This document shows positions 6,230 to 53,600 of a stretch of 64,000 nt of DNA, one piece after another. Positions within the stretch are counted from its first letter, which is position 1, and each line of letters opens with the position of its first letter. The notes under the pieces are model-generated. The model saw nothing but the letters and a program-made list of their open reading frames with translations, ran no database searches and was not told where the DNA came from. Both the position numbers and the translations under genes were made by a program. The stretch covers positions 75,385-139,384 of the forward strand of contig JAPYUP010000001.1 in the NCBI GenBank assembly GCA_029940695.1, given 5' to 3'. The stretch comes from Candidatus Thalassarchaeaceae archaeon. Lineage in GTDB: Archaea; Thermoplasmatota; Poseidoniia; Poseidoniales; Thalassarchaeaceae.

Positions 6230-6235
6230 ATAGAG

Positions 6236-8871: not shown

Positions 8872-8872
8872 A

Positions 8873-16578: not shown

Positions 16579-17565
16579 TTAACCCCCATACCTTTCCGCT
16601 ACTCGTTTGTACAGTTCGAAATCGGGGGATTCTACAAAGTTGTGCATGACGGTATCGGGCAGATCGCCAAGGAGGTCGTTAATCATCCCGAAGAAGCGGA
16701 CGCGGGAATCGTCATCCGTATGCTGTGGATCCCTACCCACCTTCTGAAATAGAGCGAATGATTCTGATTCAATGAAGCTATTCGTGAAATCATCAGGCAT
16801 CTCGCCCAAGAGGCTGTTAATGACGACGAAGAATCGATGGAATTCCTCATCAGCAGATCTGAAGCTCTGAATCGCAACGACGAACTCGTCGAAGTCGAGC
16901 GTTCCAGAGTCATCGAGGTCGGCCTTGTCGAAAAAAGATTTGAGGGAATTGAGGTCCAAATTGTACAGTGTCTCGCTGGATATACCCGTGGCGTCGGAGA
17001 CCCTGACGACGAAATCCTCATCATCCATAGCTTCTAGGAATTCTGAGAAAGACATCTCGTTGCCCTCTTCGGGAACGGAAATCAACTCAACTGTCGGCTT
17101 GATGAAGCGCAAGTCGTGTTGCTCCTTCTTCCTCAGGATGATGATTTCTCGGTCCAGTTCAGAGCCGAATCGGTCAGAGAATCTATCCATCAGGCTGCCC
17201 GACTTGCCCGAAGCAATCCGATCTATTTGCCCGTACATACTGTCTCTAGATCCGGTGCCGATACTCGGGTCGGAAGTCTTCCTATTTTCCCAGACTGACT
17301 TGAAGTCCGAGGCCGAGTCCTGCTGATTGGGCATCGGAAGGTCGCCCAAGGAATTGGCTGCGTCAAGGAGATCCGCATCACCACTCAACTCCCGTGGAAA
17401 TCCAAACTGGGGGGGAGGGGAAGGAAGAGGAAAATCGAGCGGCGGGGGTGGCATCACCAATCCCTGAGGTGGTGGCGGCAATGTAGTATTGTCATCATCG
17501 AAGTCTGATTCAATGCTATCCAGAGCATCAACCATGCCATGCTTCCGAAGTCCTCCACTATTCAA
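16579..17565 (-). CDS. EF-hand-containing repeat protein with a Pro-rich N-terminus
   Basis: Canonical 12-residue EF-hand loop DLDDSGTLDFDE, flanked by the helices LKSFFDKA and FVVAIQSF. Internal ~40-aa duplication (FFVVINSLLGEMPDDFTNSFIESESFALFQKV versus FFGMINDLLGDLPDTVMHNFVESPDFELYKRV). Confidence 0.5.
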   Translation of the reverse strand: MNSGGLRKHGMVDALDSIESDFDDDNTTLPPPPQGLVMPPPPLDFPLPSPPPQFGFPRELSGDADLLDAANSLGDLPMPNQQDSASDFKSVWENRKTSDPSIGTGSRDSMYGQIDRIASGKSGSLMDRFSDRFGSELDREIIILRKKEQHDLRFIKPTVELISVPEEGNEMSFSEFLEAMDDEDFVVRVSDATGISSETLYNLDLNSLKSFFDKADLDDSGTLDFDEFVVAIQSFRSADEEFHRFFVVINSLLGEMPDDFTNSFIESESFALFQKVGRDPQHTDDDSRVRFFGMINDLLGDLPDTVMHNFVESPDFELYKRVAERYGG

Positions 17566-18936: not shown

Positions 18937-19989
18937 TTGTCCATTACGATTGCCTCAGCGAAAGTTAGGGCCCGTCCAGTGATAGCGCAAACCGGTCCGA
19001 GTTGTCCTGATGCGGTTGACAACTTGCTTGGGTCAGGCATGGCATTGCCTGCTACGCTTGATTTTTCATCCTTGCGAACCAAGTGTCCCCATGCAAACCC
19101 ATTTCAACTCAATGGCCGGCGAGGAACCGTGTCAGTTGAACCACTGCTAGTTAGAATAGGACATTCACCAGACCCTGATGACGCATTCATGTTCTTCGGA
19201 TTAACTTCAGGCGTGATAGAAACCCCAGGACGTGTGTACGAGCATTCCCTTGTCGACATAGACACCCTGAATATAGAGGCCCGAAAGAGCACCTACGAGG
19301 TCTCCGCAGTTAGCATTCGCTCGTTCCCAGATATCTCAGAGGAATACGCCCTGATGAACTGCGGTGCCTCTATGGGCGAGGGATACGGTCCGATGGTCAT
19401 CTCCAATATGCCAATGAGTGAGGAAGAGGCTAGCGAGAAGACAATTGCAATTCCTGGTTTCAGCACCAGTGCCTTCCTCACGCTGAGACTGGCATTAGGA
19501 GAGGTTAGTGTGGTCGAAGTTCCCTTCGACGAAATTCTCCCTGGTGTAATCCTTGGGAAGTACGACGTCGGTGTAATCATCCATGAAGGTCAGCTGACAT
19601 GGAAGGGTGACGGCGTGCATCTTGTTCTGGATCTTGGTATGTGGTGGAATCAAACAACGGGGCTGCCTTTACCACTTGGGGGGAACGTCGTCAGGAAGGA
19701 CCTAGGTGAAATAGTTTGCAGAGAAATCACAAGGGACGTCAGAGCGAGTATCAGACATGCACTGGATAACCCAGAGAAGGCTCTTGAGTTCGCACGTCAA
19801 TGGGGGAGGGGGATCGATGAGAGCACCAACGAAAAGTTCGTATCGATGTATGTGAACGAGCGTACAGTCGATTATGGACCAGAAGGCCGTGAGGCAATCA
19901 GGCTATTCTTGAAGAAAGGACAGGAAATCGGGCTTGTTAGGGGGGACATGGATGTGCGGGACATTCAATTCGTAGGGCATGATGATTAG
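18937..19989 (+). CDS. mqnD: MqnA/MqnD-family (VitK2 biosynthesis, PBP-like fold) protein, probably 1,4-dihydroxy-6-naphthoate synthase MqnD
   Basis: GHSPDPDDAFMFFGL N-terminal block and a periplasmic-binding-protein-like profile. Paralog of the mqnA ORF in the same cluster. The A/D assignment is tentative. Confidence 0.55.
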   Translation: MSITIASAKVRARPVIAQTGPSCPDAVDNLLGSGMALPATLDFSSLRTKCPHANPFQLNGRRGTVSVEPLLVRIGHSPDPDDAFMFFGLTSGVIETPGRVYEHSLVDIDTLNIEARKSTYEVSAVSIRSFPDISEEYALMNCGASMGEGYGPMVISNMPMSEEEASEKTIAIPGFSTSAFLTLRLALGEVSVVEVPFDEILPGVILGKYDVGVIIHEGQLTWKGDGVHLVLDLGMWWNQTTGLPLPLGGNVVRKDLGEIVCREITRDVRASIRHALDNPEKALEFARQWGRGIDESTNEKFVSMYVNERTVDYGPEGREAIRLFLKKGQEIGLVRGDMDVRDIQFVGHDD

Positions 19990-20465: not shown

Positions 20466-21263
20466 CTAGTCGAAGTTAAACCACGTTGGTTCTTCTTCCA
20501 TGCCACAAACTTCCCTGAGAAAATGTAACAAGCCGGAAATGCTGTTGTTATCTAGAACGTTACTGACCCCTCGCTCGAAGTAAGATTCCATCCTATCCCT
20601 GGTAAAACCGAGACTTTCAGATGCTGCGCCGATGACCGCTGCCCTGACTTTGGAGTCTCTCTCGAAAAGATAGTACTGTTCCACCATGTCATCATGAGCC
20701 TCCCTCACGAGTTCGATAGGTGAGTCTCTTCTAGCAGCGAAAACGCCAAACACCATGGGCAATCCCGTCAGATTTGTCCACTCAGCCCCTAAATCTAGTT
20801 TCACCAAATCTGGATTGCGGCTAGCAGCTGAAAGGGCTCGGTCACCAATGAGCAAAGCCCCGTCGCAATCGCTCAGCATCGTCTCTATATCTGGCCCCAT
20901 CTCAACCATTTTTGGATCCAAATTAATGCCTTGGAGGAGCCATTTGAGCAGAGATTGCGAGGTTGAAGAGTCGGATGGTAGTGCGATGTCCCTCATTGAT
21001 TCGATTGGCCTGCTGCCGAAGAGCAGAACAGAGCCAACGCTCCCCTTACTAACGATGCCAAGATCTGGTATCAGGTGCATCACATCGGCGTGCAAGGCGT
21101 AGTCTGCAGTGGGAATGGGGGCTGTCAGGCAGTCTCTCCTAAGGAGATGTCCAGTTAGCCATGCAGGAGGGGCAGGGAGAATTTTCCAACGGCTGCCTAG
21201 GGATGAAAACACGGGATCACAATTGACGAATGCGACCCGTCCTAGAACACGCCTCCACGACAT
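20466..21263 (-). CDS. mqnA: Chorismate dehydratase MqnA (futalosine pathway). Start placed at the internal Met (MSWRRVLGRVAF...) just after the stop of the upstream radical-SAM gene.
   Basis: RVAFVNCDPVF N-terminal motif, ALLIGDRAL, and LTGLPMVFGVFAARRD, all typical of MqnA. The full ORF in the track (to 21380) would overlap the upstream gene by 110 bp. Confidence 0.6.
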   Translation of the reverse strand: MSWRRVLGRVAFVNCDPVFSSLGSRWKILPAPPAWLTGHLLRRDCLTAPIPTADYALHADVMHLIPDLGIVSKGSVGSVLLFGSRPIESMRDIALPSDSSTSQSLLKWLLQGINLDPKMVEMGPDIETMLSDCDGALLIGDRALSAASRNPDLVKLDLGAEWTNLTGLPMVFGVFAARRDSPIELVREAHDDMVEQYYLFERDSKVRAAVIGAASESLGFTRDRMESYFERGVSNVLDNNSISGLLHFLREVCGMEEEPTWFNFD

Positions 21264-21270
21264 GAATCCA

Positions 21271-22584
21271 CTACACCTGACCAGCAATCGGAAGGGGGAG
21301 GGTGGTTCGACCAAGTCCATCGAAGACCTCGAAGGATGTGTACGTCGAGTTTCTCTTAATGGGGACAAGTCCGGAGGCAATCACCAACCGAGCGAGCTCC
21401 TCCCTACTGTAATCCAACCTAGTCGTGCTACCTGCATCATGCATAATTTCCTCGTGTCCCACTGTTCCATCGATATCGTCAGCACCTGAATTGATTGCAA
21501 TAGAAGCCACGTAATCACCTATGTTCATTCTGTACGCTTTGATGTGTGGAATGTTGTCCAACAGTATCCTAGATGTTGCAATCACCCTTATGATCTCGTT
21601 TGCTGAAGCCAGTTGGGCCTCAGGAAGACGAGTGTTATCGGGAAGATATGGGTACGGTACGAAGCACTGGAAACCACCGGAGCCATCCTGTTGCACCCTA
21701 AGACAATCGAGGTGTATCATACGTTCCTCGACGGTTTCTATAGTCCCGAACAGCATGGTGCAGTTAGTTGGGATCCCTATCGAATGGGCGGTTCCGTGAA
21801 TTCCCAAATACTCCTTCGAAAGTTCCTTTCCACGGCAGATTCGATCTCTGACCGAATCTACTAGGATCTCAGCCCCCCCTCCGGGCAACGAGCCCAACCC
21901 TGCGTCTTTCAGCAGTTCCAAAGTCTTCCTGATGGGCAACCCCGATCTCTTAGAGATGTGCTTAATCTCAACTGAGGTGAGTGCCTTTATGTGAATTTCT
22001 GGGAATCGCGCCTTTATTGATTGAAATAGATTGGTGTAGTGCTCCACTGTCCACTGAGGATGCAGGCCACCGACAGCGTGCACCTCACCGATGTAGTTGC
22101 CATAAGGCTCGATACGGGAAACGAATTCTTCTGACGAGAGTGCATAGGATTCACTATGTCGAGGGCCCTTTCTAAACGCGCAGAACCTACAGGCCAACGT
22201 GCAGATATTCGTGGTGTTCACATGCAGATTGTCATTGAAGAATACATGATTGCCGAACCTCGATCGCTTGATCATGTCGGCTAGAGCACAGAGTCCCGCA
22301 AGCGAATTGTGATTATGTAGTAATACACCCCCTTCTACTGTAATTCTATGACCATCAATAACTTTCCTCAATGTCCCACTGAGTAGTGAGTCACGTTGAA
22401 CAGCGATGGGAGGTACCATCTCGGAGAGCTTCAGTCTCCAGCCCGAATTTGCATATGGCTGAGAATCGGACATCGAATTTCGATGAAACGAGCGGTCAAT
22501 AGGATTTGAACCCACGTTAGACAGAGGCATCGCGATGTAGAGTAGTTGAAAACTATCAATAGCCCGCATCACATCATCAATCAT
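21271..22584 (-). CDS. Radical SAM enzyme of the MqnC/MqnE (CofH-like) family, i.e. cyclic dehypoxanthine futalosine synthase or aminofutalosine synthase. The N-terminal ~70 aa may not be translated.
   Basis: CxxxCxxC cluster CTLACRFC in the NTTNICTLACRFCAFRKG context typical of MqnC/MqnE. Adjacent to mqnA. Confidence 0.65.
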   Translation of the reverse strand: MIDDVMRAIDSFQLLYIAMPLSNVGSNPIDRSFHRNSMSDSQPYANSGWRLKLSEMVPPIAVQRDSLLSGTLRKVIDGHRITVEGGVLLHNHNSLAGLCALADMIKRSRFGNHVFFNDNLHVNTTNICTLACRFCAFRKGPRHSESYALSSEEFVSRIEPYGNYIGEVHAVGGLHPQWTVEHYTNLFQSIKARFPEIHIKALTSVEIKHISKRSGLPIRKTLELLKDAGLGSLPGGGAEILVDSVRDRICRGKELSKEYLGIHGTAHSIGIPTNCTMLFGTIETVEERMIHLDCLRVQQDGSGGFQCFVPYPYLPDNTRLPEAQLASANEIIRVIATSRILLDNIPHIKAYRMNIGDYVASIAINSGADDIDGTVGHEEIMHDAGSTTRLDYSREELARLVIASGLVPIKRNSTYTSFEVFDGLGRTTLPLPIAGQV

Positions 22585-26540: not shown

Positions 26541-27734
26541 TCAATTGGATGAGATGATAGCCTCGATGGCCTCGCACAGCTCAAGGTCGTCCTTCATTGA
26601 ATGAACCGAACCGTCAGGCTTCACAATCCTGCACCTAGGGGTGTTCTCATCCCTGACTTCTCCCATTAGGTTCGCGACGACTGCATCGACCCGATAGGTA
26701 GCAATCTGCTCCATCGCCCTTTCAACGAGGACGCCCTCAGAGACACCGACCTCGAGTTTGAAGCCTATTCGAATAGATTCTCCCACTAATGGGGAAAGTT
26801 TAGCGATATGCTTCGGTCCGGGACTCAAGGTTAGTTCCCACGACTCTGCGCCGCTGGCCTTCTTTCCCTCTTCAGGACGCGAGTAATAATCCAGTACTGC
26901 GGCGGCATGAATCCAAGCTTCGGGCTTATTTTCTGCCTTGGCAACTTTCAAGGAAACTGAGAGCATCCCATCCGGAGTACCATCCCTGCGTACGTCTGGC
27001 AGTAGGAATGAGGGGGATGCTGAGGTCTTTCCCGCAATGCATATGATGTCGTGCCCCATCCTATGGAGATACTCGGCTATGGTCCAACCGGTTTGTCCAG
27101 AAGAGGCGTTTTGAATCGCTCTCACTGCATCTATGGGCGCCCTGTTAGCCCCTAATGTAATGGCGATTCGCCTTCGGTTGTCGAGTTTCTTATTGAGAAG
27201 ATTGCAGAGTTTGGCAACGATTGAAATCGCGTCAGGTTGCTTCCTACGACCCTCACTTGAATCATCAACGAGAACGGCTGCTCCGTCGGCTTCCAGCGCA
27301 TCAATCAATTCTCCCGTAACAGGGTCATCGAATAGGTCGTCGTGCATCGATGGGACGAACAACAGGGGAGTACCGTTGCCCCTGGCAGCAGAAAGAGCCA
27401 TCATGACCGGGGAGTCGATGATGCCATGAACGTGCTTGGCTATCGTGTTTCGGGTGGCCGGAGCCAGCAGGACCCCATCGAACTCAGCGAGTTGTGCCAT
27501 TTCCGGGTCCCAGTCTGTAAGAACGTCTGTTCCTGAACCCCATGAGAGAGCCAGTGGGGTGATTATCTTCTCAGCGCTGCTTGTCATCATAGTGACGATT
27601 GTAGCCCCATGCCGTCGAAGCTCCCTTGCGAGTTTGACAGACTCAACTGCAGCGATTCCTCCGGAAACAGCAAACAAGACTGTTCTACCTGCCAGGCAGC
27701 GGCTGCTGATCTCAACTCCGGTGTCGCCTCTCAC
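26541..27734 (-). CDS. coaBC: Bifunctional CoaBC: phosphopantothenoylcysteine decarboxylase and phosphopantothenate-cysteine ligase. Probable GTG start at 27734, because the longer ORF would overlap the thiolase gene.
   Basis: Flavoprotein N-domain GRTVLFAVSGGIAAVESVKLARELRRHGATI. DFP/CoaB C-domain with HAAAVLDY and a ...TLGANR-like region. Confidence 0.75.
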   Translation of the reverse strand: MRGDTGVEISSRCLAGRTVLFAVSGGIAAVESVKLARELRRHGATIVTMMTSSAEKIITPLALSWGSGTDVLTDWDPEMAQLAEFDGVLLAPATRNTIAKHVHGIIDSPVMMALSAARGNGTPLLFVPSMHDDLFDDPVTGELIDALEADGAAVLVDDSSEGRRKQPDAISIVAKLCNLLNKKLDNRRRIAITLGANRAPIDAVRAIQNASSGQTGWTIAEYLHRMGHDIICIAGKTSASPSFLLPDVRRDGTPDGMLSVSLKVAKAENKPEAWIHAAAVLDYYSRPEEGKKASGAESWELTLSPGPKHIAKLSPLVGESIRIGFKLEVGVSEGVLVERAMEQIATYRVDAVVANLMGEVRDENTPRCRIVKPDGSVHSMKDDLELCEAIEAIISSN

Positions 27735-27813
27735 ATGCGTGGTACCGCTTGGTGCTTCATGAGTGCGTCGACTGAGAGAGATGAAATGAAAGATCAGGAT
27801 GTTCGTATTGCGG

Positions 27814-29004
27814 TTATACCCTCTCAAGGGCGGTTGCGATGCCCATGCCACCGCCGATGCACATGGTGGCAATAGCTCGCTGACCGTCCGTTCTGGCCAG
27901 TAAGCTGGCAGCTTTGCAGGTGATTCTAGCACCAGAGGCACCGAGTGGGTGTCCAATTGCAATCGCACCGCCATCCAAATTGACAAGTTGCGGGTCCAAT
28001 CCCAACTGCTTGACGCAAACGATGCTCTGAGAGGAAAACGCCTCGTTCAACTCAAAGAGGTCAACGTCTGAAATTTCCCAGCCTGCCCGTTGCAACACTA
28101 GCTCGGTGGCCGAGATTGGTCCGAGGCCCATCAAATCAGGAGGGCACCCGGTTACTGCGCCTGCAACTACTGCTGCGATGGGTGTCAATCCATTGGCAAG
28201 GGCAAACTCTTCACTGCAGACCAGCGAGAATACAGTACCATCGGTCAGAGGCGAAGATGTTGCAGCCGTGACTGATCCACCTTCGATAAACGCAGGGGGT
28301 AGGCGAGACATCGATTCAAGCGAGGTTTCGGGGCGTACGCAGTCATCTTGGTGGACCTCGCCATCGGGCTTGGAAATAGGAGCTAACTCGTCGTCGAAGT
28401 ACCCTGCCTGCAAGGCTTCAGTAGCCTTCTGATGGGATGTCAGGGCGAATCTCTCCTGCTCCTCCCTCGAGATGCCGTGCAGATTGGCTACGTTCTCTGC
28501 AGTTATTCCCATGTTGACGTATGCCGGAGGGTATGAGGACTCCAATGCAGGGTGGGGACTCCAATTGAATCCCCTCCGCATTACCCTGGACATGGACTCG
28601 ATTCCCCCACAAAGGAAGCATTCTCCCCAACCGCTCATTATGTGAGAGGCCGCTGTGAGGATAGATTGCATCGAAGAACCGCACAGCCGATTGAAAGTCG
28701 CACCGGGCACAGAATTGGGCAATCCCCCGAGGTAGGTGATTATTCGGCCGATGTTGTAGCCCTGCTCTCCCTCTGGGTAGGCGCAGCCTACCAAGATGTC
28801 ATCGATAAGGGCTGGTTCGATAGAATTTCGATGGAGCAAGGTACGAGCCACTTGTCCGGCCATCTCATCGGGGCGCACATCAGCGAGGCTGCCTCTGTGG
28901 GCCCTCGTGAATGGGGAGCGGCTCCAATCGACGATTACAGCCCTCACAGAGGTTCGTCGCAAGGGGCGGCCATAACGATTCCCGGTATAATGAGTCGTGA
29001 TCAT
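27814..29004 (-). CDS. Acetyl-CoA C-acyltransferase (thiolase II/FadA-like)
   Basis: NRLCGSSMQ active-site Cys block, GYPEGEQGYNIGR, and C-terminal CIGGGMGIA with catalytic Cys. 396 aa. Confidence 0.8.
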   Translation of the reverse strand: MITTHYTGNRYGRPLRRTSVRAVIVDWSRSPFTRAHRGSLADVRPDEMAGQVARTLLHRNSIEPALIDDILVGCAYPEGEQGYNIGRIITYLGGLPNSVPGATFNRLCGSSMQSILTAASHIMSGWGECFLCGGIESMSRVMRRGFNWSPHPALESSYPPAYVNMGITAENVANLHGISREEQERFALTSHQKATEALQAGYFDDELAPISKPDGEVHQDDCVRPETSLESMSRLPPAFIEGGSVTAATSSPLTDGTVFSLVCSEEFALANGLTPIAAVVAGAVTGCPPDLMGLGPISATELVLQRAGWEISDVDLFELNEAFSSQSIVCVKQLGLDPQLVNLDGGAIAIGHPLGASGARITCKAASLLARTDGQRAIATMCIGGGMGIATALERV

Positions 29005-30148: not shown

Positions 30149-30946
30149 ATGAATAGCAGAATAGTGATTAAGCTTGGGGGGAATCTAATCACCGACAAAT
30201 CTTCCCAGAAGACCATTAGGCGAGAAGAAATCGATATCGTCTCCTCCATCCTCGCTGCCACATACGACGAAGGTTATTCGTTAGTAATAGTCCATGGAGC
30301 AGGTTCCTACGGCCATCTGCTAGCAAGACGCTGGTCAATTGACACTGGGGCTAAACCAGAAATTCTCGAAGAGCAAAGGGGCGCAGTGTCCCAGATTAGA
30401 ACGGACATGCGCGAGTTGAACGCAGAAATCGTATCCAGTCTAGCCCGCAATGGACTTCGTTCAGAGGGGTTTCCCCCCTCCAATTGGGCAGAAGGTACTG
30501 GAAGAGAATTCGTGGGTGACCTAACAATGTTTGAGCGTGAAGCGGATGATGTTATCCCCATTACTTTCGGGGACGTTGTCAATACGGGGGATATGGAAGA
30601 ATTCGGTATTCTCTCTGGGGATGACCTGATGCTAAGGCTATCCTTGGAACTTCCGGATGTGACTCACTCGATCTTCCTACTGGGGGATGCTGGAGGTGTG
30701 ATGGACAGGCCCCCAGACCAGACGGGCGCACGACTACTGCCAAGTTGGAAACCACTGGACGATATAGCCTCCAATCACATACCTGAGATCGATGTAACGG
30801 GTGGAATAAACCTCAAACTAGCACGTGCAAGCGAGATTGCAAACGTGATAGGAGAGGTTTGGCTTTTGGATGGGAGAGAGCCAGACAGGGTGCTTGAGTT
30901 GCTAAGAACAGGTAAAACGGTCGGGACAAAGATTCTCAGTAGTTGA
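30149..30946 (+). CDS. ipk: Isopentenyl phosphate kinase (amino-acid-kinase family)
   Basis: IKLGGNLITDK start and the VHGAGSYGH motif, as in the IPK VHGGGSFGH. 265 aa. Confidence 0.75.
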   Translation: MNSRIVIKLGGNLITDKSSQKTIRREEIDIVSSILAATYDEGYSLVIVHGAGSYGHLLARRWSIDTGAKPEILEEQRGAVSQIRTDMRELNAEIVSSLARNGLRSEGFPPSNWAEGTGREFVGDLTMFEREADDVIPITFGDVVNTGDMEEFGILSGDDLMLRLSLELPDVTHSIFLLGDAGGVMDRPPDQTGARLLPSWKPLDDIASNHIPEIDVTGGINLKLARASEIANVIGEVWLLDGREPDRVLELLRTGKTVGTKILSS

Positions 30947-30989
30947 GGAACTTCATATATGCCCCTCATTCCCCGATTACCTGAGAGAA

Positions 30990-32684
30990 ATGGTACACGA
31001 CCATGCTTTGTCGTTGGAGGACCATGACGACTCCCAGTCAGAAATGATGGAGGAGATGTGTCTTGTAGTTGATGGGCAAGACAATTTGACCGGTACCTTA
31101 TCAAAGTTAGATTGCCATCATCTTAACGGGCATCGACACAGGGCCTTCAGCGTACTCCTATTCGATTCAAAGGGTCGCCTGTTGGTGCAACGCAGATCTT
31201 CTGAAAAAATCACCTTTCCCGGAGTTTGGGGTAACACTTGCTGCAGTCACCCCCTCGATATAGAGGGCGAAAATGGAGATGCTATGAGCGGCGTCGTCAA
31301 CGCTGCTAAGAGGAAGTTGGAACACGAGCTCGGAATTCCCACAAGCTCCACAGATAACTGGGACTTCCATCATATTGGCATATTGGAGTATGCTTGCAGG
31401 TGGAATGAAAATTGGGTTGAGAGGGAGATGGACCATATTCTGATTGTGGAAGGAGACGCCGAGATAACCCCAAACGAGAATGAGATTTCTACCGTCCGTT
31501 GGATGGGCCCGGCCGAAGTTGGAAAGATGATGAACGGTGAGAGTGAATGGGGTGAAGAGACCGTAGCTCCTTGGTTTCGCCTAATCTGGCAGCATTTCAT
31601 AGAACCCAACGGATGTGATGCCAATACCCTCGCAAGCTTGATTTGCGAAGGCATCGTATTCTGCGGGGAAGTCGATTTGGATGGACGGGCAATCAAACCC
31701 GGACAGAAGTTCCTAGATGCGCTATCCGTGCAAAAAGAACGGACCGAGCAAGAGATTATGACTAGCCTCAGCAAGATGGGACAGGAAAGACTTCACGGCG
31801 CAATGACTCATCTTTTCAAGGGGGGTGGGAAGAGGTTGAGAGCGATACTTCCGCGGCTCGTGGGGGAGGCTGTCGGAGATGCCAACGACGGTCACTACAC
31901 CCTCGGGGCGTCTATTGAGATCATTCACAACTTCACCCTAGTCCACGACGACATCATGGACCAAGACCCAATACGAAGGGGCCTAGATTCGGTTCACGTC
32001 GCATATGATGTTGCTACTGCCATTAATGCAGGAGATGCGATGCTCGCAGTTGGGTTCGAGATTCTTGCAGAGTCAAAGGACATTCCCCCCGAAATTCTCA
32101 AGCAACTTATCATTTCTATCGGAGAGATGGTGAGGGGGGTCGCAGAAGGCCAGCAGGAAGACATCGAGTTCGAGGGCAGGGAGCACGTAACTGAGGAGGA
32201 GTACATTGCTATGATAGCAGGCAAGACCAGTGCTATGTTCGAAACCTGCGCTAGGACGGGAGCGATACTCGCCAATGCTAGTCAAGATGCCATCGACAAC
32301 ATGGCTCGATGGGGGCTGAATCTTGGGCTCTGCTTCCAACTGATGGATGACCTCATTGAAATCACCGGCGACACCGTCACACTGGGCAAGCCAGCAGGGT
32401 CTGACATCATACAGGGAAAGAAGACGCTGATCGCTATACATGCTATTGGCTGCGGGCAAGATTTACCATATTTCAACAAGGTGTATGGCACAGGAAATTG
32501 TGACAATGATGACTTGGCCAGAGCCGTAGATGAATTGCGAGAATCGGGTTCGATTAACTATGCCAAGCAAAAGGCGATGGAGCACCATGCACTGGCCCAT
32601 AGTTGCCTAGACGAGTTGGAAGAATCTGAGGCAGTTAGTGTGCTGAGGGACCTTACTGACTTCCAACTGATTAGAATAAACTGA
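30990..32684 (+). CDS. Bifunctional fusion: type 1 isopentenyl-diphosphate isomerase (Nudix-type IDI) at the N-terminus and geranylgeranyl diphosphate synthase (trans-prenyltransferase) at the C-terminus
   Basis: The N-terminal ~200 aa align with E. coli Idi (HRAFSVLLFDSKGRLLVQRRSSEKITFPGVWGNTCCSHP, ...EYACRWNENWVERE...). The C-terminal ~330 aa carry FARM LVHDDIMD and SARM FQLMDDLIE. Single uninterrupted ORF of 564 aa. Confidence 0.8.
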   Translation: MVHDHALSLEDHDDSQSEMMEEMCLVVDGQDNLTGTLSKLDCHHLNGHRHRAFSVLLFDSKGRLLVQRRSSEKITFPGVWGNTCCSHPLDIEGENGDAMSGVVNAAKRKLEHELGIPTSSTDNWDFHHIGILEYACRWNENWVEREMDHILIVEGDAEITPNENEISTVRWMGPAEVGKMMNGESEWGEETVAPWFRLIWQHFIEPNGCDANTLASLICEGIVFCGEVDLDGRAIKPGQKFLDALSVQKERTEQEIMTSLSKMGQERLHGAMTHLFKGGGKRLRAILPRLVGEAVGDANDGHYTLGASIEIIHNFTLVHDDIMDQDPIRRGLDSVHVAYDVATAINAGDAMLAVGFEILAESKDIPPEILKQLIISIGEMVRGVAEGQQEDIEFEGREHVTEEEYIAMIAGKTSAMFETCARTGAILANASQDAIDNMARWGLNLGLCFQLMDDLIEITGDTVTLGKPAGSDIIQGKKTLIAIHAIGCGQDLPYFNKVYGTGNCDNDDLARAVDELRESGSINYAKQKAMEHHALAHSCLDELEESEAVSVLRDLTDFQLIRIN

Positions 32685-34892
32685 TTAATCAGTGTACTGG
32701 GACTCTCCGGGAATCTCTGCCTTCAGCCCCTTCCGTTGCCTTATCTCACCGCTGACCTTGTGGAATAGGTCGGAAGGAACTTGGACGTAGCCAGCGTTCT
32801 CGGTATTCCATACGGCCCTTCCTTGGGTTGCTGCCCTGATGTCGTTGGAGAATCCGAACGACTCGGCCACAGGCATCTTGCCGATGACGCTAGCGACTCC
32901 GCCTTCTACAGGCATGTCTTCAATGATTCCTCTCCTGGTTGTAACTTCTCTTGTGATGCCCCCAATCCATTCGTTGGGCGCATCTATCCTAATTTTCTGG
33001 ATAGGCTCGAACATCACGGAGCCGGCCCTGATTAACGCACCCTTGATGGCGTTCCTGACAGCCGGAATTGTCTGTGCGGGACCCCGGTGGATGGCATCCT
33101 CGTGCAACTTAGCGTCAACTAGCCTGGCCATCACACCAGTCAAGGGCTCTTCCGCAATGGGGCCCTTCTTACAGACATCGTTGAACGCCTCGATAATCAG
33201 TTCCCGAGTCTCATGGAGGTTCTGAATACCCTTGGTATCGTTGACTAGAATGGTGGTTCCGTTTATGGCATATATCTTCCTCATCAGATTCTTTTCCATG
33301 CCAAACTCTGCAAACTTGTTACCGGTTTCCTTCGCATCCTTGGCACGAACAGGGCCATCCCCGAAGTGACCCTCCCTGAGGGCTTGGACGACCTCCTCTG
33401 TTAGGGTCTCAACCTCAATGTAGAATCGATTGTGCCTGTTTGGGGACTTCCCCTCGAAGGGGCGGCCCTTGTTGTCGCCAGAGATAGACTCTCGATAAAC
33501 CACAATGGGCTCGCTGACATTGACTTTGATGCCTTGCTCCTCCTCTAGCCTGTATATGGTAATCTCCAGATGCAGCTCACCCATTCCAGCCAGCAGAGCC
33601 TCGCCTGTTTCTTGGTTCGTTGAGACTTCCAAGGATGCATCTGCCTTCGCAAGCCCCCTTAGCGCGTCAATGAACTTCGGCAGATCCTTCATTGCCTTGG
33701 GCTCAATTGCAACCGTAACGACGGGTTCTGAGTAGTGGCGTATGGCTTCGAACGGTGTGGCATCCTGATCGCGTGCGATAGTAATGCCGGCAGCAGCGCT
33801 CCTGACCCCAGTAAGTGCAGCTATGTTGCCTGCCGACACTCCTGGGACTTGAATTCGGTCGCTCCCCACCATCATGCTGACTTGCTGCACTCGTTCGGCC
33901 TTTGCTGAACCAATCGCCCAAACGGTCTCGCCCTGCTTGACGGTACCCGAATACACCCTACCCACTGCGACTTCGCCTGCATGTTGATCCATCCAAATCT
34001 TGGTAATCATTAACGAAAGCGGTCCATCTGGGTCGCATTCTAACATGGACTTGCCGACCTCAGATTCCAATTCCCCTTGCCAAATGTTAGGGATCCGGTA
34101 CTCTTGTGCGATTAGGGGGGAAGGTAGTTTCTCAACTGTCATGTCGAGGAGAACCTCGTGCACAGGCGCTCTCTTAGCAAGTTCACGCTGTTGATCATTA
34201 TGACAATGTTCGAAGATTTCCTTGAATGAAATTCCTGACTTGGACATATATGGCACGGTTATGCCCCAGTTGTGGTAAGCAGAGCCGAACGCTACAGTGC
34301 CGTCTTGGACGCTGACCTGCCAATCTTTCTCGTGCCCATCGGGAGCGAAGCGTTCGATTAGGCTGTTGACCTTGGTTATCTGTACCATGAACCTCTCCTG
34401 CATATCCTCTGGAGTTACCTGTAGCTCGTTGATGAGTCGATCGACCTTGTTGATGAAGAGAACGGGCTTGACTTTCTCCTTCAGAGCCTGTCGAACAACC
34501 GTCTCGGTCTGGGGCATCGCTCCCTCTACGGCACAAGTCAGTATGATACACCCGTCTACGGCTCGCATTGCGCGTGTGACATCGCCTCCAAAGTCGACGT
34601 GCCCGGGGGTGTCGATGAGGTTGATTAGATAGTCATGATTGTTCACTTTGTGGACCATGGAGGCACTTGCTGCATTGATTGTGATGCCTCTGGCGCTCTC
34701 TTGGTCATCAAAATCTAGGACCCTCGACTTTCCGGCCAACTCCTCCGACATCATGCCCGCGCCGGCAATCAGGTTGTCTGAGAGAGTGGTCTTGCCGTGG
34801 TCGATGTGGGCAGCGATTGCGAGGTTCCTGATGCGTTCACGAGTTTGCATCACCTCAGTGGCACGCTTGATGTTCTCTTCCTTGCGTCCCAT
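32685..34892 (-). CDS. fusA: Translation elongation factor 2 (aEF-2)
   Basis: G-domain AHIDHGKTTLSD. 735 aa. The diphthamide-target His is in context ...HEDAIHRGPAQTIPA. Confidence 0.9.
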   Translation of the reverse strand: MGRKEENIKRATEVMQTRERIRNLAIAAHIDHGKTTLSDNLIAGAGMMSEELAGKSRVLDFDDQESARGITINAASASMVHKVNNHDYLINLIDTPGHVDFGGDVTRAMRAVDGCIILTCAVEGAMPQTETVVRQALKEKVKPVLFINKVDRLINELQVTPEDMQERFMVQITKVNSLIERFAPDGHEKDWQVSVQDGTVAFGSAYHNWGITVPYMSKSGISFKEIFEHCHNDQQRELAKRAPVHEVLLDMTVEKLPSPLIAQEYRIPNIWQGELESEVGKSMLECDPDGPLSLMITKIWMDQHAGEVAVGRVYSGTVKQGETVWAIGSAKAERVQQVSMMVGSDRIQVPGVSAGNIAALTGVRSAAAGITIARDQDATPFEAIRHYSEPVVTVAIEPKAMKDLPKFIDALRGLAKADASLEVSTNQETGEALLAGMGELHLEITIYRLEEEQGIKVNVSEPIVVYRESISGDNKGRPFEGKSPNRHNRFYIEVETLTEEVVQALREGHFGDGPVRAKDAKETGNKFAEFGMEKNLMRKIYAINGTTILVNDTKGIQNLHETRELIIEAFNDVCKKGPIAEEPLTGVMARLVDAKLHEDAIHRGPAQTIPAVRNAIKGALIRAGSVMFEPIQKIRIDAPNEWIGGITREVTTRRGIIEDMPVEGGVASVIGKMPVAESFGFSNDIRAATQGRAVWNTENAGYVQVPSDLFHKVSGEIRQRKGLKAEIPGESQYTD

Positions 34893-36219: not shown

Positions 36220-37491
36220 ATGGGCTTCCGTCAAATGCTACAGGGCGTCCAAGTTGTGGATGAACTCGTCAGCGTGCGTCACGAAATGCTCGAGCTCTCA
36301 ATGGCATCCGAGCACCGCCCCTTGCTTCTAACTAATGTAAAAGAGTCACCAGGACATCGTGCAGCGCTCAACATCATTGACAGGGACAGGCTCTGCGAAT
36401 CCTTCGGAGTGAAACCTGGGGAGTTGATTGATATCCTCGCCTGGGCGATGAATAACCCCTCTGAACCAGTTCTGGTTGGCGCTCCGGGGGCACCTGTTCT
36501 AGAGAACACCATGGAAAAGGTTGACCTTTCGACTCTACCCATCCCATGGCACTATCCGGAAGACGGTGGGAGATACCAGTCAGCATCGGTGATTATCGCC
36601 CAGTACGGTGGTACAAGGAACGCATCGTTCCACAGACAACTTCTCAGGGATGCGACACATACAGTTTCTAGATTCGTGCCCCGTCACCTCCGTACCATGG
36701 CTGACAACGCAATTGAGTCTGGCGACGAGATTCCGATTGCCGTTGTGAACGGCCCTGATCCAGTGGTACTTCTTGCCGGTGCCATGTCATTCGACGAACC
36801 ACTCGACGAGCTAAGGGTCGCGGCTGCCCTTCATGAGAGATTATACGACGAGCCACTTAGAATTGTGGAGCTCTCAAACGGTGTGGCTGTTCCCGCAGAC
36901 TCAGAGTATGCCATGGAGGCCCGGATAACCCTGCAGACCGATCGGGAGGGACCCTATGTCGACATCACAGGAACGGTGGATGGCGTAAGACTAGAGCCAG
37001 TCATTGAATACGATGCAATCCATCACCGGGACTCTCCGGTCTTCCACGCCCTTATTCCCGCGGGATTGGAGCACAAGACCCTCATGGGATTGCCTAGGGC
37101 ACCTACTATCAAAGCGGCCGTGTCAGAGGTTGTGACCTGTACTGATGTCTACCTTACTGAAGGGGGCTGCGGATGGCTCTCTTCCGTAGTACAAATAGTG
37201 CCAACGCAAAAGAGTGACGGGGTCAAGGCCATCCATGCTGCCCTCGATGGGCATAGGTCGATGAAGCAGGTGATTGTCGTCGATGATGACATCGATGTCA
37301 CCGATCCTGCTCGTGTCGAATGGGCCTTGATGACTCGGTGGCAACCCGACGTTGACACAGTGATACTCTCCAGTCAGAAGGGCTCTAGTCTCGACCCCAG
37401 CCGTGACAAAGACGGGACGACGAGTAAAATTGGCATGGATGCGACATTAGATTCCTCTATCGATCGCTCGGCCTTCGAGTCGGTGCTGTGA
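36220..37491 (+). CDS. UbiD-family (prenyl-FMN-dependent) decarboxylase. It could be the futalosine-pathway decarboxylase (MqnL-like) or the archaeal anhydromevalonate-phosphate decarboxylase. The sequence alone does not resolve which.
   Basis: 423 aa. UbiD-like N-terminal and central blocks (…PLLLTNVKESPG…, …GRYQSASVIIAQYGGTRNASFHRQLL…). Confidence 0.6.
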   Translation: MGFRQMLQGVQVVDELVSVRHEMLELSMASEHRPLLLTNVKESPGHRAALNIIDRDRLCESFGVKPGELIDILAWAMNNPSEPVLVGAPGAPVLENTMEKVDLSTLPIPWHYPEDGGRYQSASVIIAQYGGTRNASFHRQLLRDATHTVSRFVPRHLRTMADNAIESGDEIPIAVVNGPDPVVLLAGAMSFDEPLDELRVAAALHERLYDEPLRIVELSNGVAVPADSEYAMEARITLQTDREGPYVDITGTVDGVRLEPVIEYDAIHHRDSPVFHALIPAGLEHKTLMGLPRAPTIKAAVSEVVTCTDVYLTEGGCGWLSSVVQIVPTQKSDGVKAIHAALDGHRSMKQVIVVDDDIDVTDPARVEWALMTRWQPDVDTVILSSQKGSSLDPSRDKDGTTSKIGMDATLDSSIDRSAFESVL

Positions 37492-49709: not shown

Positions 49710-50693
49710 ATGGAGGACCCAATAGGGGCGGTAGTCAGCTCGCTCGCCTCTTCACTAGGCATTGCTGAGGTGACGATACAACTCATTATCGGCACCGTTG
49801 GGCTGGTGCTGCTCGGAATAGGCTTCCACCGGAGCGCGGAATCATATGCAGATCGCGCCGCCATCGCCGGATGGCCCTTGATTGGCCTGTTCTTCTACCT
49901 CTACTCTGATCACTATGTGGAGATCGCGGACCCGGTTCTGATTCTCATGACGGCTGGGGCGCTACCTGCTGGTATTGGAGTGTCACTATGGGAAGCGAAG
50001 GGCGAGACCGTTCACTCAGGAACCTTGCATTGGCTAAGGGGGTGTGTGGTGTGGTCAATGCTGCCATACTATGTCATTTACAACATTCCCCAACTCAATA
50101 TGGGCTTCGTGTACGTTACTGCACTGAGTGCAGGGTGGATGTTGGAGTTCTCTGGAATAGGGGGCTATGAGGTAGGGGGCATGATGATAGAAAGGTTTGG
50201 CGAGGCTCCCATTCCCGTCTCGGATTGGGCAGGTAACAGATGGATCCTCAGCGAACCCCTTGGGGAGATTGGTTTCTTCGTCTCGATGAACAATAGTGAG
50301 GGTGTGACCGTAGTCGCCTTCATCTTAGCGTGCTCTGCCTTGCAGTCCATGGCCGTATTCATTGGGGCGATTGTGGCTCTAAGCTCTGTTCACTGGAAGA
50401 GAAGGGTGCGAGCGCTACTCATCGCACTGCCCACTATCCACGTCCTAAACGTTTTCAGGAACGCGGGGATAGTTTGGCTTACAGACACTTACCCGAGTTG
50501 GTCCTTCTTCGGGATTGGGATGTTTGACTTTACCCACAGCTATGCCGCCAAGTTCGCTAGCCTATTCGCAATGTTTCTGATGGCAATCGCTCTGTTTGAC
50601 CTGCTGCCAGAGCTCCACAGACACATAATGAAAGTGTTGAACCCATTGATGGTTGCTTTGGGATCCAAACCAGCTTCATCAGACCATCCGTGA
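49710..50693 (+). CDS. Archaeosortase/exosortase-family polytopic membrane protein
   Basis: Multiple TM helices. LACSALQS matches the exosortase ACSG(L/I)RS Cys motif. HVLNVFRNAG supplies the conserved Asn/Arg. 327 aa. Confidence 0.5.
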   Translation: MEDPIGAVVSSLASSLGIAEVTIQLIIGTVGLVLLGIGFHRSAESYADRAAIAGWPLIGLFFYLYSDHYVEIADPVLILMTAGALPAGIGVSLWEAKGETVHSGTLHWLRGCVVWSMLPYYVIYNIPQLNMGFVYVTALSAGWMLEFSGIGGYEVGGMMIERFGEAPIPVSDWAGNRWILSEPLGEIGFFVSMNNSEGVTVVAFILACSALQSMAVFIGAIVALSSVHWKRRVRALLIALPTIHVLNVFRNAGIVWLTDTYPSWSFFGIGMFDFTHSYAAKFASLFAMFLMAIALFDLLPELHRHIMKVLNPLMVALGSKPASSDHP

Positions 50694-53600
50694 TCTGATT
50701 CTCTCGTATAGCTTGCCAGTCAGCGGCATGTCATGCTCCCAAGCGAATTCCTTCATCACCCGCACGGCCTCCTTCTCGAGGTCGGAATCACCCACGAAAT
50801 CTGTGATTTCTATCGTGTCTTTCCTCGTGTTTGCCTTGAAAGCAGCGATTGGCTCCTCCTTGTGAAACACGAGGTAGGCTGAGCCGTAGCCGAACCGCTC
50901 CCTGAGCACACTCCCAAAGTAGTGAATCAGCGGGTCTGAAGGTGGAATGACAAGGTCCCTCGATCTAGAGATGGTGTCTAGGCCCTCGAGCATGTCCTGG
51001 CGCCCCCAGCAGATGTCCTGCAGGTCATCGACTAGGAACCCCTTGATCAGTGTACCATCCTCCTCGAACTCGTGCATCACGTCACTGATTTCCTCTGGGG
51101 AGAACGAAGAACCTGCCAAACGCTCTAATTGCTTCAGCGTGATGACAGGGTAGTTTTGGACTAGTTCCCTGAGATAGTCTCTCTTGATTCCCCACAAGTC
51201 AGCGTTCGATATCGGTTCGACGGTCTTGAAACCGCCCCTGTAGTCTTGAATCAGGTGACCGCTCCTGACTAGGGGCGATACGAGTTTGCGGAAGTTGGAT
51301 CTACTCATGGCATTGCGTTCCATGTAGACATCGGGGTCATTGTGCTCTCTGAAGAACTGTAGAATCTCCTCATCCTCGGCCTCGATAGGTACGTTCCTGA
51401 TGGTTAGCAGATTCTGGAAGTGTCGATATCGAGCCCAAACCAGGTGTCCTCTGAGGTTGGAGCCCTGGTGCAACTGGTGCGCAGCGACCATCGAACTCAG
51501 GTTGACTCTGAACATCTCACAACGGCCCCTTAGGGAGAAGTCGTCACGAAGCTCGCTGGTGTTCTCCAATGCTATTGTCTCGTTTTCCCACCTGCTATCC
51601 TGATGTAGCGAATGGTGAAGGAATAGCATTCTATTGACTTGCTTCCTTGTTCTAGGCGCAACCACACCGCCCCTGATATACCTCTCACCATCACCCATCG
51701 AGACGAAACCGAGATTGGAGAGGATTAACTGGATGTTTTCGTCGCAGTCGTGAACGGGAACGCCGTTGAAGGCATGCAGAACTGAGACATCGACCAAGCG
51801 ATCACGATAGTTCTCGAGCAGCTCCTCGAAAGCGGTCTTGAAATCGTCTAGGTAGGAGTGGGGGATGTTGATGTCCTTGATCTCCAGGTAGTCGTTGACT
51901 ACGAACATCAAGATTCTACCAATTGGATCCACCCCCTTGAAGACCGGGTAGTACCATCCTTGTTTGAGCAGGAGGCGAATCTCCTGGATGAATCTGCTAC
52001 TGAACGGATCGGACTGGGACAGGATTCTCATCTTCCTGTCTTCAGGAAGGGGGGACAGTAGGCGTTCGGCGTCCTCAGGCGATGCGTAGTAGTCCGTTGG
52101 GTCAGGTTGGAGTGTTACAACTCTAGCTATCGTCCCCTCCCTCTCCAGTTCCCTCAGAGCATCGGCCAACTCCTCGACGGGACGGGCCACGAAGAAGCGC
52201 AGGGTATGAATCCGCACCGGTCCGATACGTGCAATGAGATGTGACAAGGCCTCATGGAATGGCAATGGTTCGATTCGGCCGTGCAAGCGTCTGAAAATGG
52301 CCATTGAGCGTTTCCTGTTCGGTATGTCGATGTACTGCTTGACGACTGCCAGTTGACGCTCCAGATTGGAAAGGGCTGACTTAAGGCTCCTCTGGACGTG
52401 GGCGTTTTCCTTCCCCCTAGGATAGTCTGCGAACAACTCCGAGCGTGAAGTTCCCTCCTCGGTTATCTTGTCGAGGAGTTCTTCCTCAAGTGGACCTAGC
52501 CACGGATCGCTCCTTAGCCCGAGAAGCATTGGAAGTTGATTGCCGAGTGTGTAGCCAACGCGGTTGTGTAGAAGCCTGCCGTTGAAGATGTCCGAGTCGT
52601 GCTTGATGTCCTTCCAGTCACGGAATCGGAAGTTTGTCACTCTGTGCAGCAACTCCTCCCTTCGTTGGACGAGGGCAAGATTCCGAATTGCGTCTACGGG
52701 TTCGTCGAAGGTCGCGAATGATTTGTGGAGAATGAGGGTCTGGAGAGTCCGATAGTCGATGACATTGACTTGGCCGCCAGTAATTCGGTACTCATCGACC
52801 CTGAGAATGAACTCGCCCTCGTCAGTCTGAGTGAAGAAGCCGATTGAGGCTAGGTTGCGCATCTCAAGCTCTTGCAACACGGCATCTACTTGAGCTGAGG
52901 GGAAGGGGAGCCTCAAACTGAGGGCCTCGGCGGTTTGCGGGCCCTCAGAGCCAAGCATGTCGAGCAGCTTGAGGCGTAGGCAATCCATTGGGTCAGAGAG
53001 GGATTTCTTCCTCCAGCTGGAGGGATTCCCACCAACAAAAGACATCCCCATCTCGTAGCTCAGGCCCCCGGTGTAGAGCGCTCTCAAGTCATCCATCTCC
53101 GTGGCTCCAGCAATCGCTAAGCATCCCAGCGTCCCATGGACCTCGGCCATTCTCATCGAGAACCACTTGTCATCGATCTTCTCGTGGCCTGTGCCGCGAA
53201 CCTTGGTAATCAGTTCGCGTTCGGCGAGCTCATGAACCCAACCACGAAGCGTATCGTGATCTATTGCCTTTAGCTTCTCGCTGTACAGTGGGTGCGTTAG
53301 CTTGCTCTCCAGACCGCCGCCCATGTCCATGAGTCTGAGGAGTTCGTTGGCATTGGTCGGTACTACAACCTTGGACTGGTAGTAATCCCACAATCGGGCC
53401 TCGTCCAGATCGGTAGCAAGGGAACGCGCGCCGAGAAGGCGACGTAGGATTTCAGGATCTACGTCCTTGATTAAGTAAGCACGTGTCCTGAGAGAGAGCA
53501 AGTCCTCGAATGAGGACATGAAGAGAGTCATTCCCAGTGGAGAGGGTATCTTGACCCTGCGGTGAACGATTCGGACGTCCTCGCTGTCCATCCTGTTGAT

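Follow-up and report, generated by a model that had tools for sequence, protein, structure and literature searches.

The stretch of genomic DNA analysed here (64,000 nt in length and hereafter referred to as the window) derives from a Candidatus Thalassarchaeaceae archaeon (assembly GCA_029940695.1, contig JAPYUP010000001.1) and was found to harbour a gene in which a type 1 isopentenyl diphosphate (IPP) isomerase, or IDI1, is joined to a short-chain trans-prenyl diphosphate synthase of the geranylgeranyl diphosphate (GGPP) type. The fused gene extends from 30990 to 32684 on the forward strand, to which, as window positions, all feature coordinates in this text refer, and it specifies a protein of 564 amino acids (aa). 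We consider this protein to represent, with a probability of roughly 85%, a genuine bifunctional IDI-GGPP synthase (GGPPS) enzyme of the Marine Group II (MGII) archaea, or Poseidoniales, the window itself belonging to the MGIIb/Thalassarchaeaceae side of this group. The IDI1 domain is encoded by positions 30990..31589 (approximately residues 1-200) and the prenyl diphosphate synthase domain by 31725..32684 (approximately residues 246-564), the two being connected by a junction segment at 31590..31724 (approximately residues 201-245). Pfam analysis of the protein returned NUDIX at residues 49-186 and polyprenyl_synt (PF00348) at residues 266-515, the latter with an E value of 2e-62 and 211 bits as against a cut-off of 27, and covering profile positions 2-250 of 251. 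The original prediction, which had been made from the letters of the DNA and a list of its open reading frames (ORFs), had described ORFs at 30149-30946 and, for the 564-aa product, at 30990-32684, and both are present at these positions; profile searches covering each half of the larger product, which it had proposed as a check, assigned NUDIX/type 1 IDI to the one and polyprenyl_synt to the other.

The identity of the N-terminal half was established by two NCBIfam equivalog models for type 1 IDI, TIGR02150 (145.8 bits, cut-off 105.8) and NF002995 (128.7 bits, cut-off 127). Alignment with Escherichia coli Idi, the reference sequence of which was verified against PDB entry 1i9a, placed C67 and E116 of the latter at C85 and E146 of the fusion, which form its catalytic pair, while H25, H32, H69 and E114 correspond to H43, H50, H87 and E144, which together with E146 are the metal ligands, and E87, Y104 and W161 correspond to E113, Y134 and W195. 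Each of these nine residues is invariant in a conservation set of 121 sequences, comprising the window protein and the best 120 of its 2916 relatives. The claim that this half is a type 1 IDI was thereby confirmed. The accompanying claim, that it is highly similar to E. coli Idi, applies at the level of motifs and not to the sequence as a whole, as overall identity to E. coli Idi is approximately 31% and human IDI1 is far closer, the latter being the closest solved relative with an E value of 3e-39 as compared to 5e-14 for E. coli Idi. Named stand-alone relatives closest to the IDI half include an oomycete IDI with 46% identity, and from these comparisons the domain is assigned to the long, eukaryote-like subtype of IDI1 and not to the short bacterial subtype. 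A Foldseek search with the IDI domain of the AlphaFold2 (AF2) model matched human IDI1 2i6k with a TMt of 0.89, with root-mean-square deviations of 2.1-2.3 Å to 2i6k/2ick. No match to the type 2 enzyme (FMN_dh/TIGR02151) was detected, either in the fusion itself or among the 46 ORFs of the window that were scanned.

It could be argued that the N-terminal domain is a generic or regulatory Nudix protein, such as a prenyl diphosphate hydrolase or a catalytically dead scaffold, as Pfam assigns it to no more than the broad NUDIX family and as a weak match (29.7 bits) to the Nudix hydrolase YfcD was observed. A Nudix domain lacking the catalytic Cys and Glu of IDI, which the original prediction had named as the outcome that would overturn it, was looked for and not found, C85 and E146 both being present; moreover, the scores on both equivalog models, the proximity to human IDI1 and the retention of all nine functional residues of E. 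coli Idi speak against such a protein. In related genomes the same genomic slot holds a type 2 IDI, which indicates that the slot carries isomerase function. Identity as a generic Nudix hydrolase was rejected on the equivalog scores and the invariant catalytic residues, and a non-isomerase function of any kind is considered highly improbable.

For the C-terminal half, the closest PDB entries are the archaeal GGPP synthases 5jfq (E value 8e-58) and 1wy0, and the synthase domain of the AF2 model aligned with 1wy0/5jfq by Foldseek with a TMt of 0.92-0.93. The first aspartate-rich motif (FARM) reads D320-D-I-M-D324 (nt 31947-31961) and contains no insertion, and each of its three Asp residues is invariant in all 121 sequences, as is F315 (nt 31932-31934) at position -5 relative to the FARM. 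By an established rule, archaeal type I GGPPS are recognised by a Phe at -5, which caps the chain at C20, together with a DDxxD FARM that is free of insertions. In addition, the HNFTLVHDDIMD segment of the fusion is identical to the corresponding segment of the GGPPS 5jfq. The second aspartate-rich motif (SARM) was identified as D453-D-L-I-E457 (nt 32346-32360), where the first two Asp residues are invariant in the 121 sequences and the last position is Asp (DDLID) in 117 of these and Glu, which retains the carboxylate, in the window sequence and three close relatives. The original prediction of an intact FARM was therefore upheld, and that of an intact SARM was upheld for its first two Asp and not for the last, the motif being DDLIE and not DDxxD. 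Taken together, the comparisons assign the synthase half to a GGPPS-like short-chain synthase of a divergent lineage that lies outside the GGPP_syn and IdsA_Meth equivalog families, and suggest GGPP (C20) as its product.

The fused frame is open across approximately 31590-31760, while both alternative frames hold stop codons, and the homopolymer runs of six or more nucleotides nearest to the junction are located at 31204 and 31820, i.e. away from it. The junction consists, in order, of the former IDI C-terminal tail, the former stop/start point (approximately nt 31662-31706, CGEVDLDGRAIKPGQ) and the start of the first GGPPS helix, and it is collinear with the separate genes of loci L088, L073 and L049, the distance from 'PWF' in the IDI to 'GGKRLR' in the GGPPS being 81 aa in split genes and 82-87 aa in fusions. 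In the split locus L088 the IDI ends with ...KGDLT* and the GGPPS starts with MSLPD..., both within ACA TGA GTT TGC CT, as compared to a boundary of ...MGDVTHMLPN... (ACA CAT ATG CTT CC) in MGIIa fusions, where the former start Met has been retained and the net difference is 1 nt. No linker was added; the junction represents the native IDI C-terminal tail and the native GGPPS N-terminus, changed by a net 1-nt indel. The AF2 model, which was built on 38 fused homologues, has a mean predicted local distance difference test score (pLDDT) of 89.7, with values above 90 across the IDI domain, and it places a helix (211-215) and a strand (222-228) in the junction at residues 201-245, where the pLDDT is 77-92. 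This segment is moderately conserved (0.57-0.73), and the model indicates that it is not a floppy linker.

A word-indexed search with the window protein returned the 2916 relatives mentioned above, and analysis of the best 120 clusters (clustered at 90% identity) established that these share 64-90% identity with the window protein, are approximately 562-585 aa in length, cover 97-100% of the query and each contain both Pfam domains. The fused clusters, at least 120 in number, derive from ENA, JGI, NCBI, Logan and Tara assemblies, and the named proteins that match best belong to genomes of Candidatus Thalassarchaeaceae (MGIIb). An exhaustive search of representatives at 50% identity added further fused clusters, P0121 from Poseidonia sp. 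(MGIIa; 51% identity) and P0122 (43%). A scan of GTDB species genomes revealed 22 loci, belonging to Thalassarchaeaceae and Poseidoniaceae, in which both halves share one frame, with 46-90% identity, and one further locus, L022, is interrupted solely by runs of N. The protein sequence of the junction has diverged among these fusions yet the frame has been kept. Based on this comparison, the fusion is judged to be real, conserved in both MGII families and under selection.

The possibility that the single ORF arose through a sequencing or assembly frameshift, which merged separate overlapping IDI1 and GGPPS genes, had been raised by the original prediction itself, and it draws some credence from close relatives that do carry separate genes overlapping at ATGA, from the net 1-nt indel by which the two states differ, and from locus L022, which appears split in public data. 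Against this, the one-frame architecture recurs in at least 120 clusters from five independent sources and in 22 species genomes (46-90% identity) of two families, the junction has remained in frame despite the divergence of its protein sequence, it lacks homopolymers and has both other frames closed, and L022 is split by runs of N only. A frameshift at the junction was looked for and was not borne out, as independent assemblies share the frame, and an artefact was rejected in view of this conservation and of the frames, stop codons and homopolymer runs examined around the junction; its probability is regarded as negligible. The reading frame across the junction, checked in the window sequence, and the search for the fusion in related genomes, which had been suggested, both turned out in favour of one uninterrupted ORF that joins an IDI1 to a GGPPS-type synthase, with the 22 GTDB species loci sharing the same synteny.

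The gene immediately preceding the fusion (30149..30946, forward strand) encodes a 265-aa isopentenyl phosphate kinase (IPK), a protein separate from the fusion, as judged from its matches to PF00696 AA_kinase, the amino-acid-kinase fold family of Pfam, and to the NCBIfam equivalog NF040647 IPPK_Arch (163.1 bits, cut-off 120). In every MGII locus, and in the majority of the other archaeal GGPPS loci, the IDI/GGPPS genes are immediately preceded by IPK. The original prediction had correctly placed IPK directly upstream, albeit at a distance of 44 bp; the spacer (30947..30989, forward strand) is 43 bp in length, contains no oligo-T run and includes a TATA-like CATATATG approximately 30 nt before the ATG. 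In related loci the spacers between IPK and the next gene are roughly 30-65 nt. The CATATATG element may serve as a promoter of the fused gene, or the fusion may be co-transcribed with IPK. Window ORFs near the fusion include those for archaeal elongation factor 2 (EF-2), ribosomal proteins S7 and S12, exosome and proteasome subunits, primase and tRNA synthetases, which mark the window as archaeal and, through its closest relatives, as a part of MGII; the neighbourhood common to fused loci reads, with strands in brackets and CoaBC at its outer edge, CoaBC, thiolase (-), Tpt1 (+), a small Zn-ribbon protein (-), IPK (+), the fusion (+), archaeal EF-2 (aEF-2; -), S7 (-) and a UbiD-family protein (+). 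The fusion ends with its stop codon at 32684 and the convergent aEF-2 gene occupies 32685-34892 on the minus strand, which means that the two stop codons abut with a spacing of 0 bp (window 32682-32687) and that the two convergent transcripts must terminate inside each other's genes, and the same type of stop-to-stop abutment was observed in L084, L086 and L088.

Comparison of this slot among related genomes revealed three states. In the first (L085, L086/L087) the IPK gene is followed by a separate type 2 IDI (IDI2), a separate GGPPS, and then EF-2, S7, S12 and UbiD; the IDI2 scores 325-359 bits on TIGR02151 as against a cut-off of 281, the GGPPS is 42-53% identical to the C-terminal half of the fusion, the IDI2 in the slot between IPK and GGPPS was noted within L085 6883-8981 and L086 6914-9008, and these two loci keep the same flanking genes as the window. 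In the second state (L084, L088/L089) IPK is followed by a separate 235-aa IDI1 (TIGR02150, 145.9 bits) and a separate 332-aa GGPPS which is 52% identical to the fused C-terminal half, again with EF-2, S7, S12 and UbiD thereafter, the EF-2 being 78% identical to that of the window; here, the IDI1 and GGPPS genes overlap by 4 bp (ATGA). The third state is the IDI1-GGPPS fusion, which is present in most MGII genomes including the window. Replacement of IDI2 by IDI1 in this slot is interpreted, from these gene comparisons, as a non-orthologous gene displacement inside one operon.

The direction of these changes can be read from other archaea. Among 53 other archaeal GGPPS loci detected in the same scan, which span Thermoplasmata, Bathyarchaeia, Methanosarcinales, Archaeoglobi, Hadesarchaea, Desulfurococcales, haloarchaea and others, an IDI2 gene is located directly upstream on the same strand in 30 and one gene away in 12 more, and the typical order is (MVK)-IPK-IDI2-GGPPS, where MVK denotes mevalonate kinase. 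The statement of the original prediction that most archaea use type 2 IDI accords with these counts and with two publications (PMC4244643, PMC3533463), according to which IDI2 is the normal archaeal type and IDI1 a sporadic acquisition in archaea. The order in the outgroup loci combined with this literature therefore points to the IDI2 state as ancestral, to an in-place replacement of IDI2 by IDI1, and to the fusion as the last event. Under this scheme the ancestral archaeal order would have been (MVK)-IPK-IDI2-GGPPS, a eukaryote-like type 1 IDI would have displaced the type 2 IDI in the same slot, and the ATGA-overlapping IDI1 and GGPPS genes would then have merged by a net 1-nt indel without the addition of a linker.

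Neighbour-joining (NJ) trees with bootstrap were constructed for EF2, EF2+S7, GGPPS, IPK, a four-gene set and EF2+S7+UbiD, and the placement of the unfused IDI1 lineage conflicts among these. The data may therefore be explained by one fusion with a basal unfused lineage, by one fusion followed by a later fission, or by two fusions. Separate IDI1 and GGPPS genes were also found elsewhere. In the Marine Group III (MGIII)-type loci L049, L057 and L073 a eukaryote-like IDI1 is followed by GGPPS with overlapping stop and start codons, in a different neighbourhood and with GGPPS proteins that are 34-40% identical, while in the single-cell genome of Candidatus Nitrosopelagicus SAG AH-558-I11 (L079 4262-7622) MVK-like, IPK, IDI1 and GGPPS genes are contiguous as separate ORFs. 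The IDI1 of the latter is 29% identical to that of the window and scores higher on NF002995 than on TIGR02150, which assigns it to the bacterial subtype and suggests that in marine Thaumarchaeota IDI1 took the place of IDI2 in this operon position a second time, independently.

With regard to function, the separately encoded IPK would turn isopentenyl phosphate into IPP, the metal-dependent IDI1 domain would interconvert IPP and dimethylallyl diphosphate (DMAPP) by means of the acid/base pair Cys85/Glu146, and the C-terminal domain would condense one DMAPP with three IPP to form GGPP at the Mg2+ sites of the FARM and SARM, chain length being capped by Phe315 at -5 to the FARM. The GGPP thus formed would feed ether lipids and other isoprenoids. 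The original prediction had placed the entire route from isopentenyl phosphate to GGPP on one polypeptide; the domains for the conversion of IPP to DMAPP and on to GGPP are indeed joined, whereas IPK is a separate protein. The fusion would set the two activities at a ratio of 1:1, DMAPP would be made beside the site that consumes it, and the protein would probably dimerise via its synthase domain, by analogy with other such synthases. It is conceivable, and is put forward here tentatively, that the fusion represents a naturally evolved channelling or flux-balancing enzyme which allows GGPP to be formed from IPP alone with little free DMAPP, and which is the last of a three-step series in one slot.

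Several observations weigh against parts of this interpretation. MGII archaea are uncultured and the two enzymatic activities are predictions. The top NCBIfam models for the C-terminal half, IdsA_Meth (259.1 bits, cut-off 468) and GGPP_syn (247.5 bits, cut-off 500), fall short of their cut-offs, so that the -5 Phe rule and the nearest structures are the basis for assigning C20 specificity, and the SARM of the window sequence has the DDLIE form described above. The predicted template modelling score (pTM) of the AF2 model is only 0.66, which leaves the relative orientation of the domains, and with it any direct proximity of the active sites, uncertain. The related lineage with unfused IDI1 and GGPPS genes thrives, with contigs of up to 1.86 Mb and many cluster members, which implies that the fusion is not required, and the fusion itself needed just a net 1-nt indel at the ATGA overlap. 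Finally, as regards the order of events, monophyly of the fused taxa received 11-27% bootstrap in the EF2, EF2+S7, GGPPS and four-gene trees as compared to 99% in the EF2+S7+UbiD tree.

Two of these points bear on the product of the synthase, which may be farnesyl diphosphate (FPP) or a mixture of FPP and GGPP, as formed by methanogen IdsA, or a longer chain for a menaquinone side chain. The best NCBIfam model is that of the bifunctional IdsA_Meth, no equivalog cut-off was reached, and a geranylfarnesyl synthase model scored 219 bits. Furthermore, the window contains genes of the futalosine pathway for menaquinone, from which it follows that quinone synthesis, too, requires a prenyl donor in this cell, and no second prenyl synthase was found among the 46 ORFs scanned within the 64 kb. 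However, the invariant Phe315 and the uninserted FARM fit the established rule for archaeal type I GGPPS, the two nearest structures are both archaeal GGPPS with the identical HNFTLVHDDIMD segment, and the gene occupies the slot that the lipid GGPPS has in the conserved archaeal IPK-IDI-GGPPS cluster. GGPP is accordingly retained as the predicted product, and any other product is deemed unlikely.

The question of whether the fusion provides a benefit is more finely balanced, as it may instead have arisen by accidental read-through of translationally coupled genes and be selectively neutral, with no gain beyond that of an operon. Such an origin, which we hold to be possible without favouring it, would be in keeping with the ease of the 1-nt change at the overlap and the absence of an added linker, with the well-populated related lineage that keeps the genes split, and with the pTM value, which lends no support to fixed, facing active sites. 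It is less easily reconciled with a frame that was kept across both MGII families down to 46% identity, with a junction that is structured and moderately conserved, or with the recurrence of IDI-prenyl-synthase fusions, independently, in at least four other lineages. The latter comprise P0213 (L082 499-2043), a fusion with a bacterial-type IDI; P0228 (L083 1279-2949), which combines a eukaryote-like IDI with a divergent GGPPS; P0261, in which a bacterial-type IDI is joined to an IspA-type FPP synthase (NF045485, 352 vs 275 bits); and P0268 (L081 1215-2798), which is part of an overlapping gene set, or operon, of a UbiA prenyltransferase, the fusion, a CMAS-like methyltransferase and an SMR gene. 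A gain in flux is also known from engineering, an artificial assembly of IDI with the GGPPS CrtE having increased the carotenoid titre in E. coli 5.7 fold (Kang et al. 2019, as summarised in the review PMC7322351).

The relationship of the fusion to known systems may be outlined as follows. With stand-alone IDI1 enzymes (human 2dho/2i6k/2icj; E. coli 1hzt/1i9a) it shares the Nudix-type fold, the Cys/Glu pair, the His/Glu ligands and a TNTCCSHP-type motif, and it differs from these in that the C-terminus of its IDI is covalently joined to a prenyl synthase. Unlike E. coli Idi, which is of the short bacterial subtype, the IDI of the fusion is eukaryote-like and its host is an archaeon, where type 2 IDI is the norm according to PMC4244643 and PMC3533463. 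Archaeal type I GGPPS, such as those of Geoglobus acetivorans (5jfq) and Pyrococcus horikoshii (1wy0), have in common with the synthase half the all-helical fold of trans-isoprenyl diphosphate synthases, the DDIMD FARM, the Phe at -5, the position of the SARM and the location downstream of IPK and IDI; the fusion departs from them in its N-terminal IDI, in equivalog scores that are low (247-259 vs 468-500) and in its DDLIE SARM. The gene order, strand and genomic slot of the fusion locus are those of the archaeal (MVK)-IPK-IDI2-GGPPS cluster, but the flavin-dependent IDI2 has been replaced by the unrelated, metal-dependent IDI1, which is fused to the GGPPS. The unfused IDI1 and GGPPS pairs (L084/L088, the MGIII-type L049, L057 and L073, and L079) consist of the same enzymes in the same order, with the synteny of L088 being identical to that of the window and its EF2 78% identical, and differ from the fusion in forming two polypeptides instead of one.

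As regards previously described fusions, the nearest natural precedent documented in the sources consulted is the diatom IDI-squalene synthase PtIDISQS (PMC12168105, citing Fabris et al. 2014), in which a type 1 IDI is likewise naturally fused to an enzyme that builds isoprenoid chains. It differs in that its partner is a squalene synthase, which performs head-to-head condensation of FPP and makes no direct use of DMAPP, and in that it belongs to a eukaryote and stems from an unrelated event; the partner domain in the MGII fusion is, according to Pfam, polyprenyl_synt and not a squalene/phytoene synthase. Engineered IDI-CrtE assemblies join the same two activities (PMC7322351), albeit by synthetic peptide tags and with bacterial or yeast enzymes, unlike the MGII fusion, which is natural, covalent, free of a linker and conserved in an abundant ocean clade. 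No description of the fusion, or of an IDI1 in MGII, was found in the literature searched, which covered MGII genomics (Rinke 2018, Tully 2019, Orellana 2019), reviews of archaeal lipids and isoprenoids and a 2024 survey of archaeal isoprenoid genes, and in which subscription journals were thinly represented. While both halves and the IPK-IDI-GGPPS cluster are well known, the fusion is thus apparently undescribed. The original prediction of its novelty therefore stands within this literature, but it does not extend to the protein as such, which was already present in public databases under names that refer to one half only.

What distinguishes the MGII system is the combination of a eukaryote-like IDI1 in an archaeon, the displacement of IDI2 in the same operon slot and the covalent fusion to GGPPS, by which the entry point of MGII isoprenoid synthesis is built differently from that of other archaea. 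MGII, whose lipid chemistry is debated, rank among the most abundant uncultured microbes of the surface ocean. If the fusion does channel DMAPP, it would represent the first natural counterpart of the engineered IDI-GGPPS assemblies and would provide a marker, specific to this clade, of isoprenoid and lipid metabolism in these uncultured, globally abundant archaea. The three locus states constitute an unusually clean natural series of gene displacement within an operon followed by fusion at an ATGA overlap, and the fused proteins and their naturally split orthologues offer a simple system in which the kinetic benefit of a fusion may be judged. The protein also provides a ready-made IDI-GGPPS fusion for terpenoid engineering, where co-localisation of both activities is known to raise yields.

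The existence of the fusion in public records draws attention to a problem of annotation, in that the protein is named after one of its halves. The exact window protein is present in NCBI (P0361) as part of a 77-member cluster, and fusion proteins have been public for years in NCBI, JGI, ENA and Tara, with both Pfam domains precomputed, under the names 'isopentenyl-diphosphate delta-isomerase', 'geranylgeranyl diphosphate synthase type I' or 'polyprenyl synthetase family protein'. Fusion proteins or their contigs were also found to be mis-filed under Gemmatimonadetes and a Rhodobiaceae metagenome-assembled genome (MBU01485.1, L009 CALDQY010000021.1) despite archaeal EF-2/S7 synteny. Furthermore, a 232-aa IDI that is 59% identical to the N-terminal half of the window protein (P0128, VFK24048.1) is filed under the ciliate symbiont 'Candidatus Kentron', and P0127, from a contig of 1.6 kb that may be a chimeric assembly, links an IDI with a CHU_C domain of type IX secretion.

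Among the other genes of the window, that for the UbiD-family decarboxylase (36220-37491, forward strand; TIGR00148, 305 bits; best PDB match 6h6x) is retained close to the IPK/IDI-GGPPS block throughout the MGII loci and also in relatives of the IDI2 type. On the menaquinone decarboxylase equivalog its product reaches 81 bits, far short of the 496 required, and NCBIfam and PDB searches with it returned the generic family only. It could represent either the decarboxylase that acts on anhydromevalonate phosphate in the archaeal mevalonate pathway, and would thereby provide IPK with its substrate, or a decarboxylase of a quinone pathway. The futalosine-pathway menaquinone genes referred to above comprise two VitK2_biosynth (MqnA/MqnD-like) genes at 18937-19989 (forward strand) and 20466-21380 (minus strand), and one for an MqnE/MqnC-like radical SAM protein at 21271-22584 (minus strand). 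Adjoining the IPK/fusion block, a bacterial-type, FadA-like thiolase is encoded on the minus strand at 27814-29004 (TIGR01930, 405 bits), and the CoaBC ORF, as listed at 26541-27986 (minus strand, 481 aa), overlaps it by 173 bp; the Pfam domains of CoaBC begin at residue 102, which places its true start probably around 95 codons downstream of the listed one. A histidine-utilisation cluster at 2062-9913 consists of an amidohydrolase (2062-3396, forward strand) and, on the minus strand, histidine ammonia-lyase (4679-6229), urocanase (6236-8251) and the parts of a formiminotransferase-cyclodeaminase (8251-8871 and 8873-9913). Finally, the minus strand encodes at 50679-55976 an Lhr-type helicase of 1765 aa, which carries an additional DNA glycosylase domain resembling AlkZ, and at 16579-17565 a 328-aa protein with matches to the EF-hand/EH domain, a domain unusual for an archaeon.

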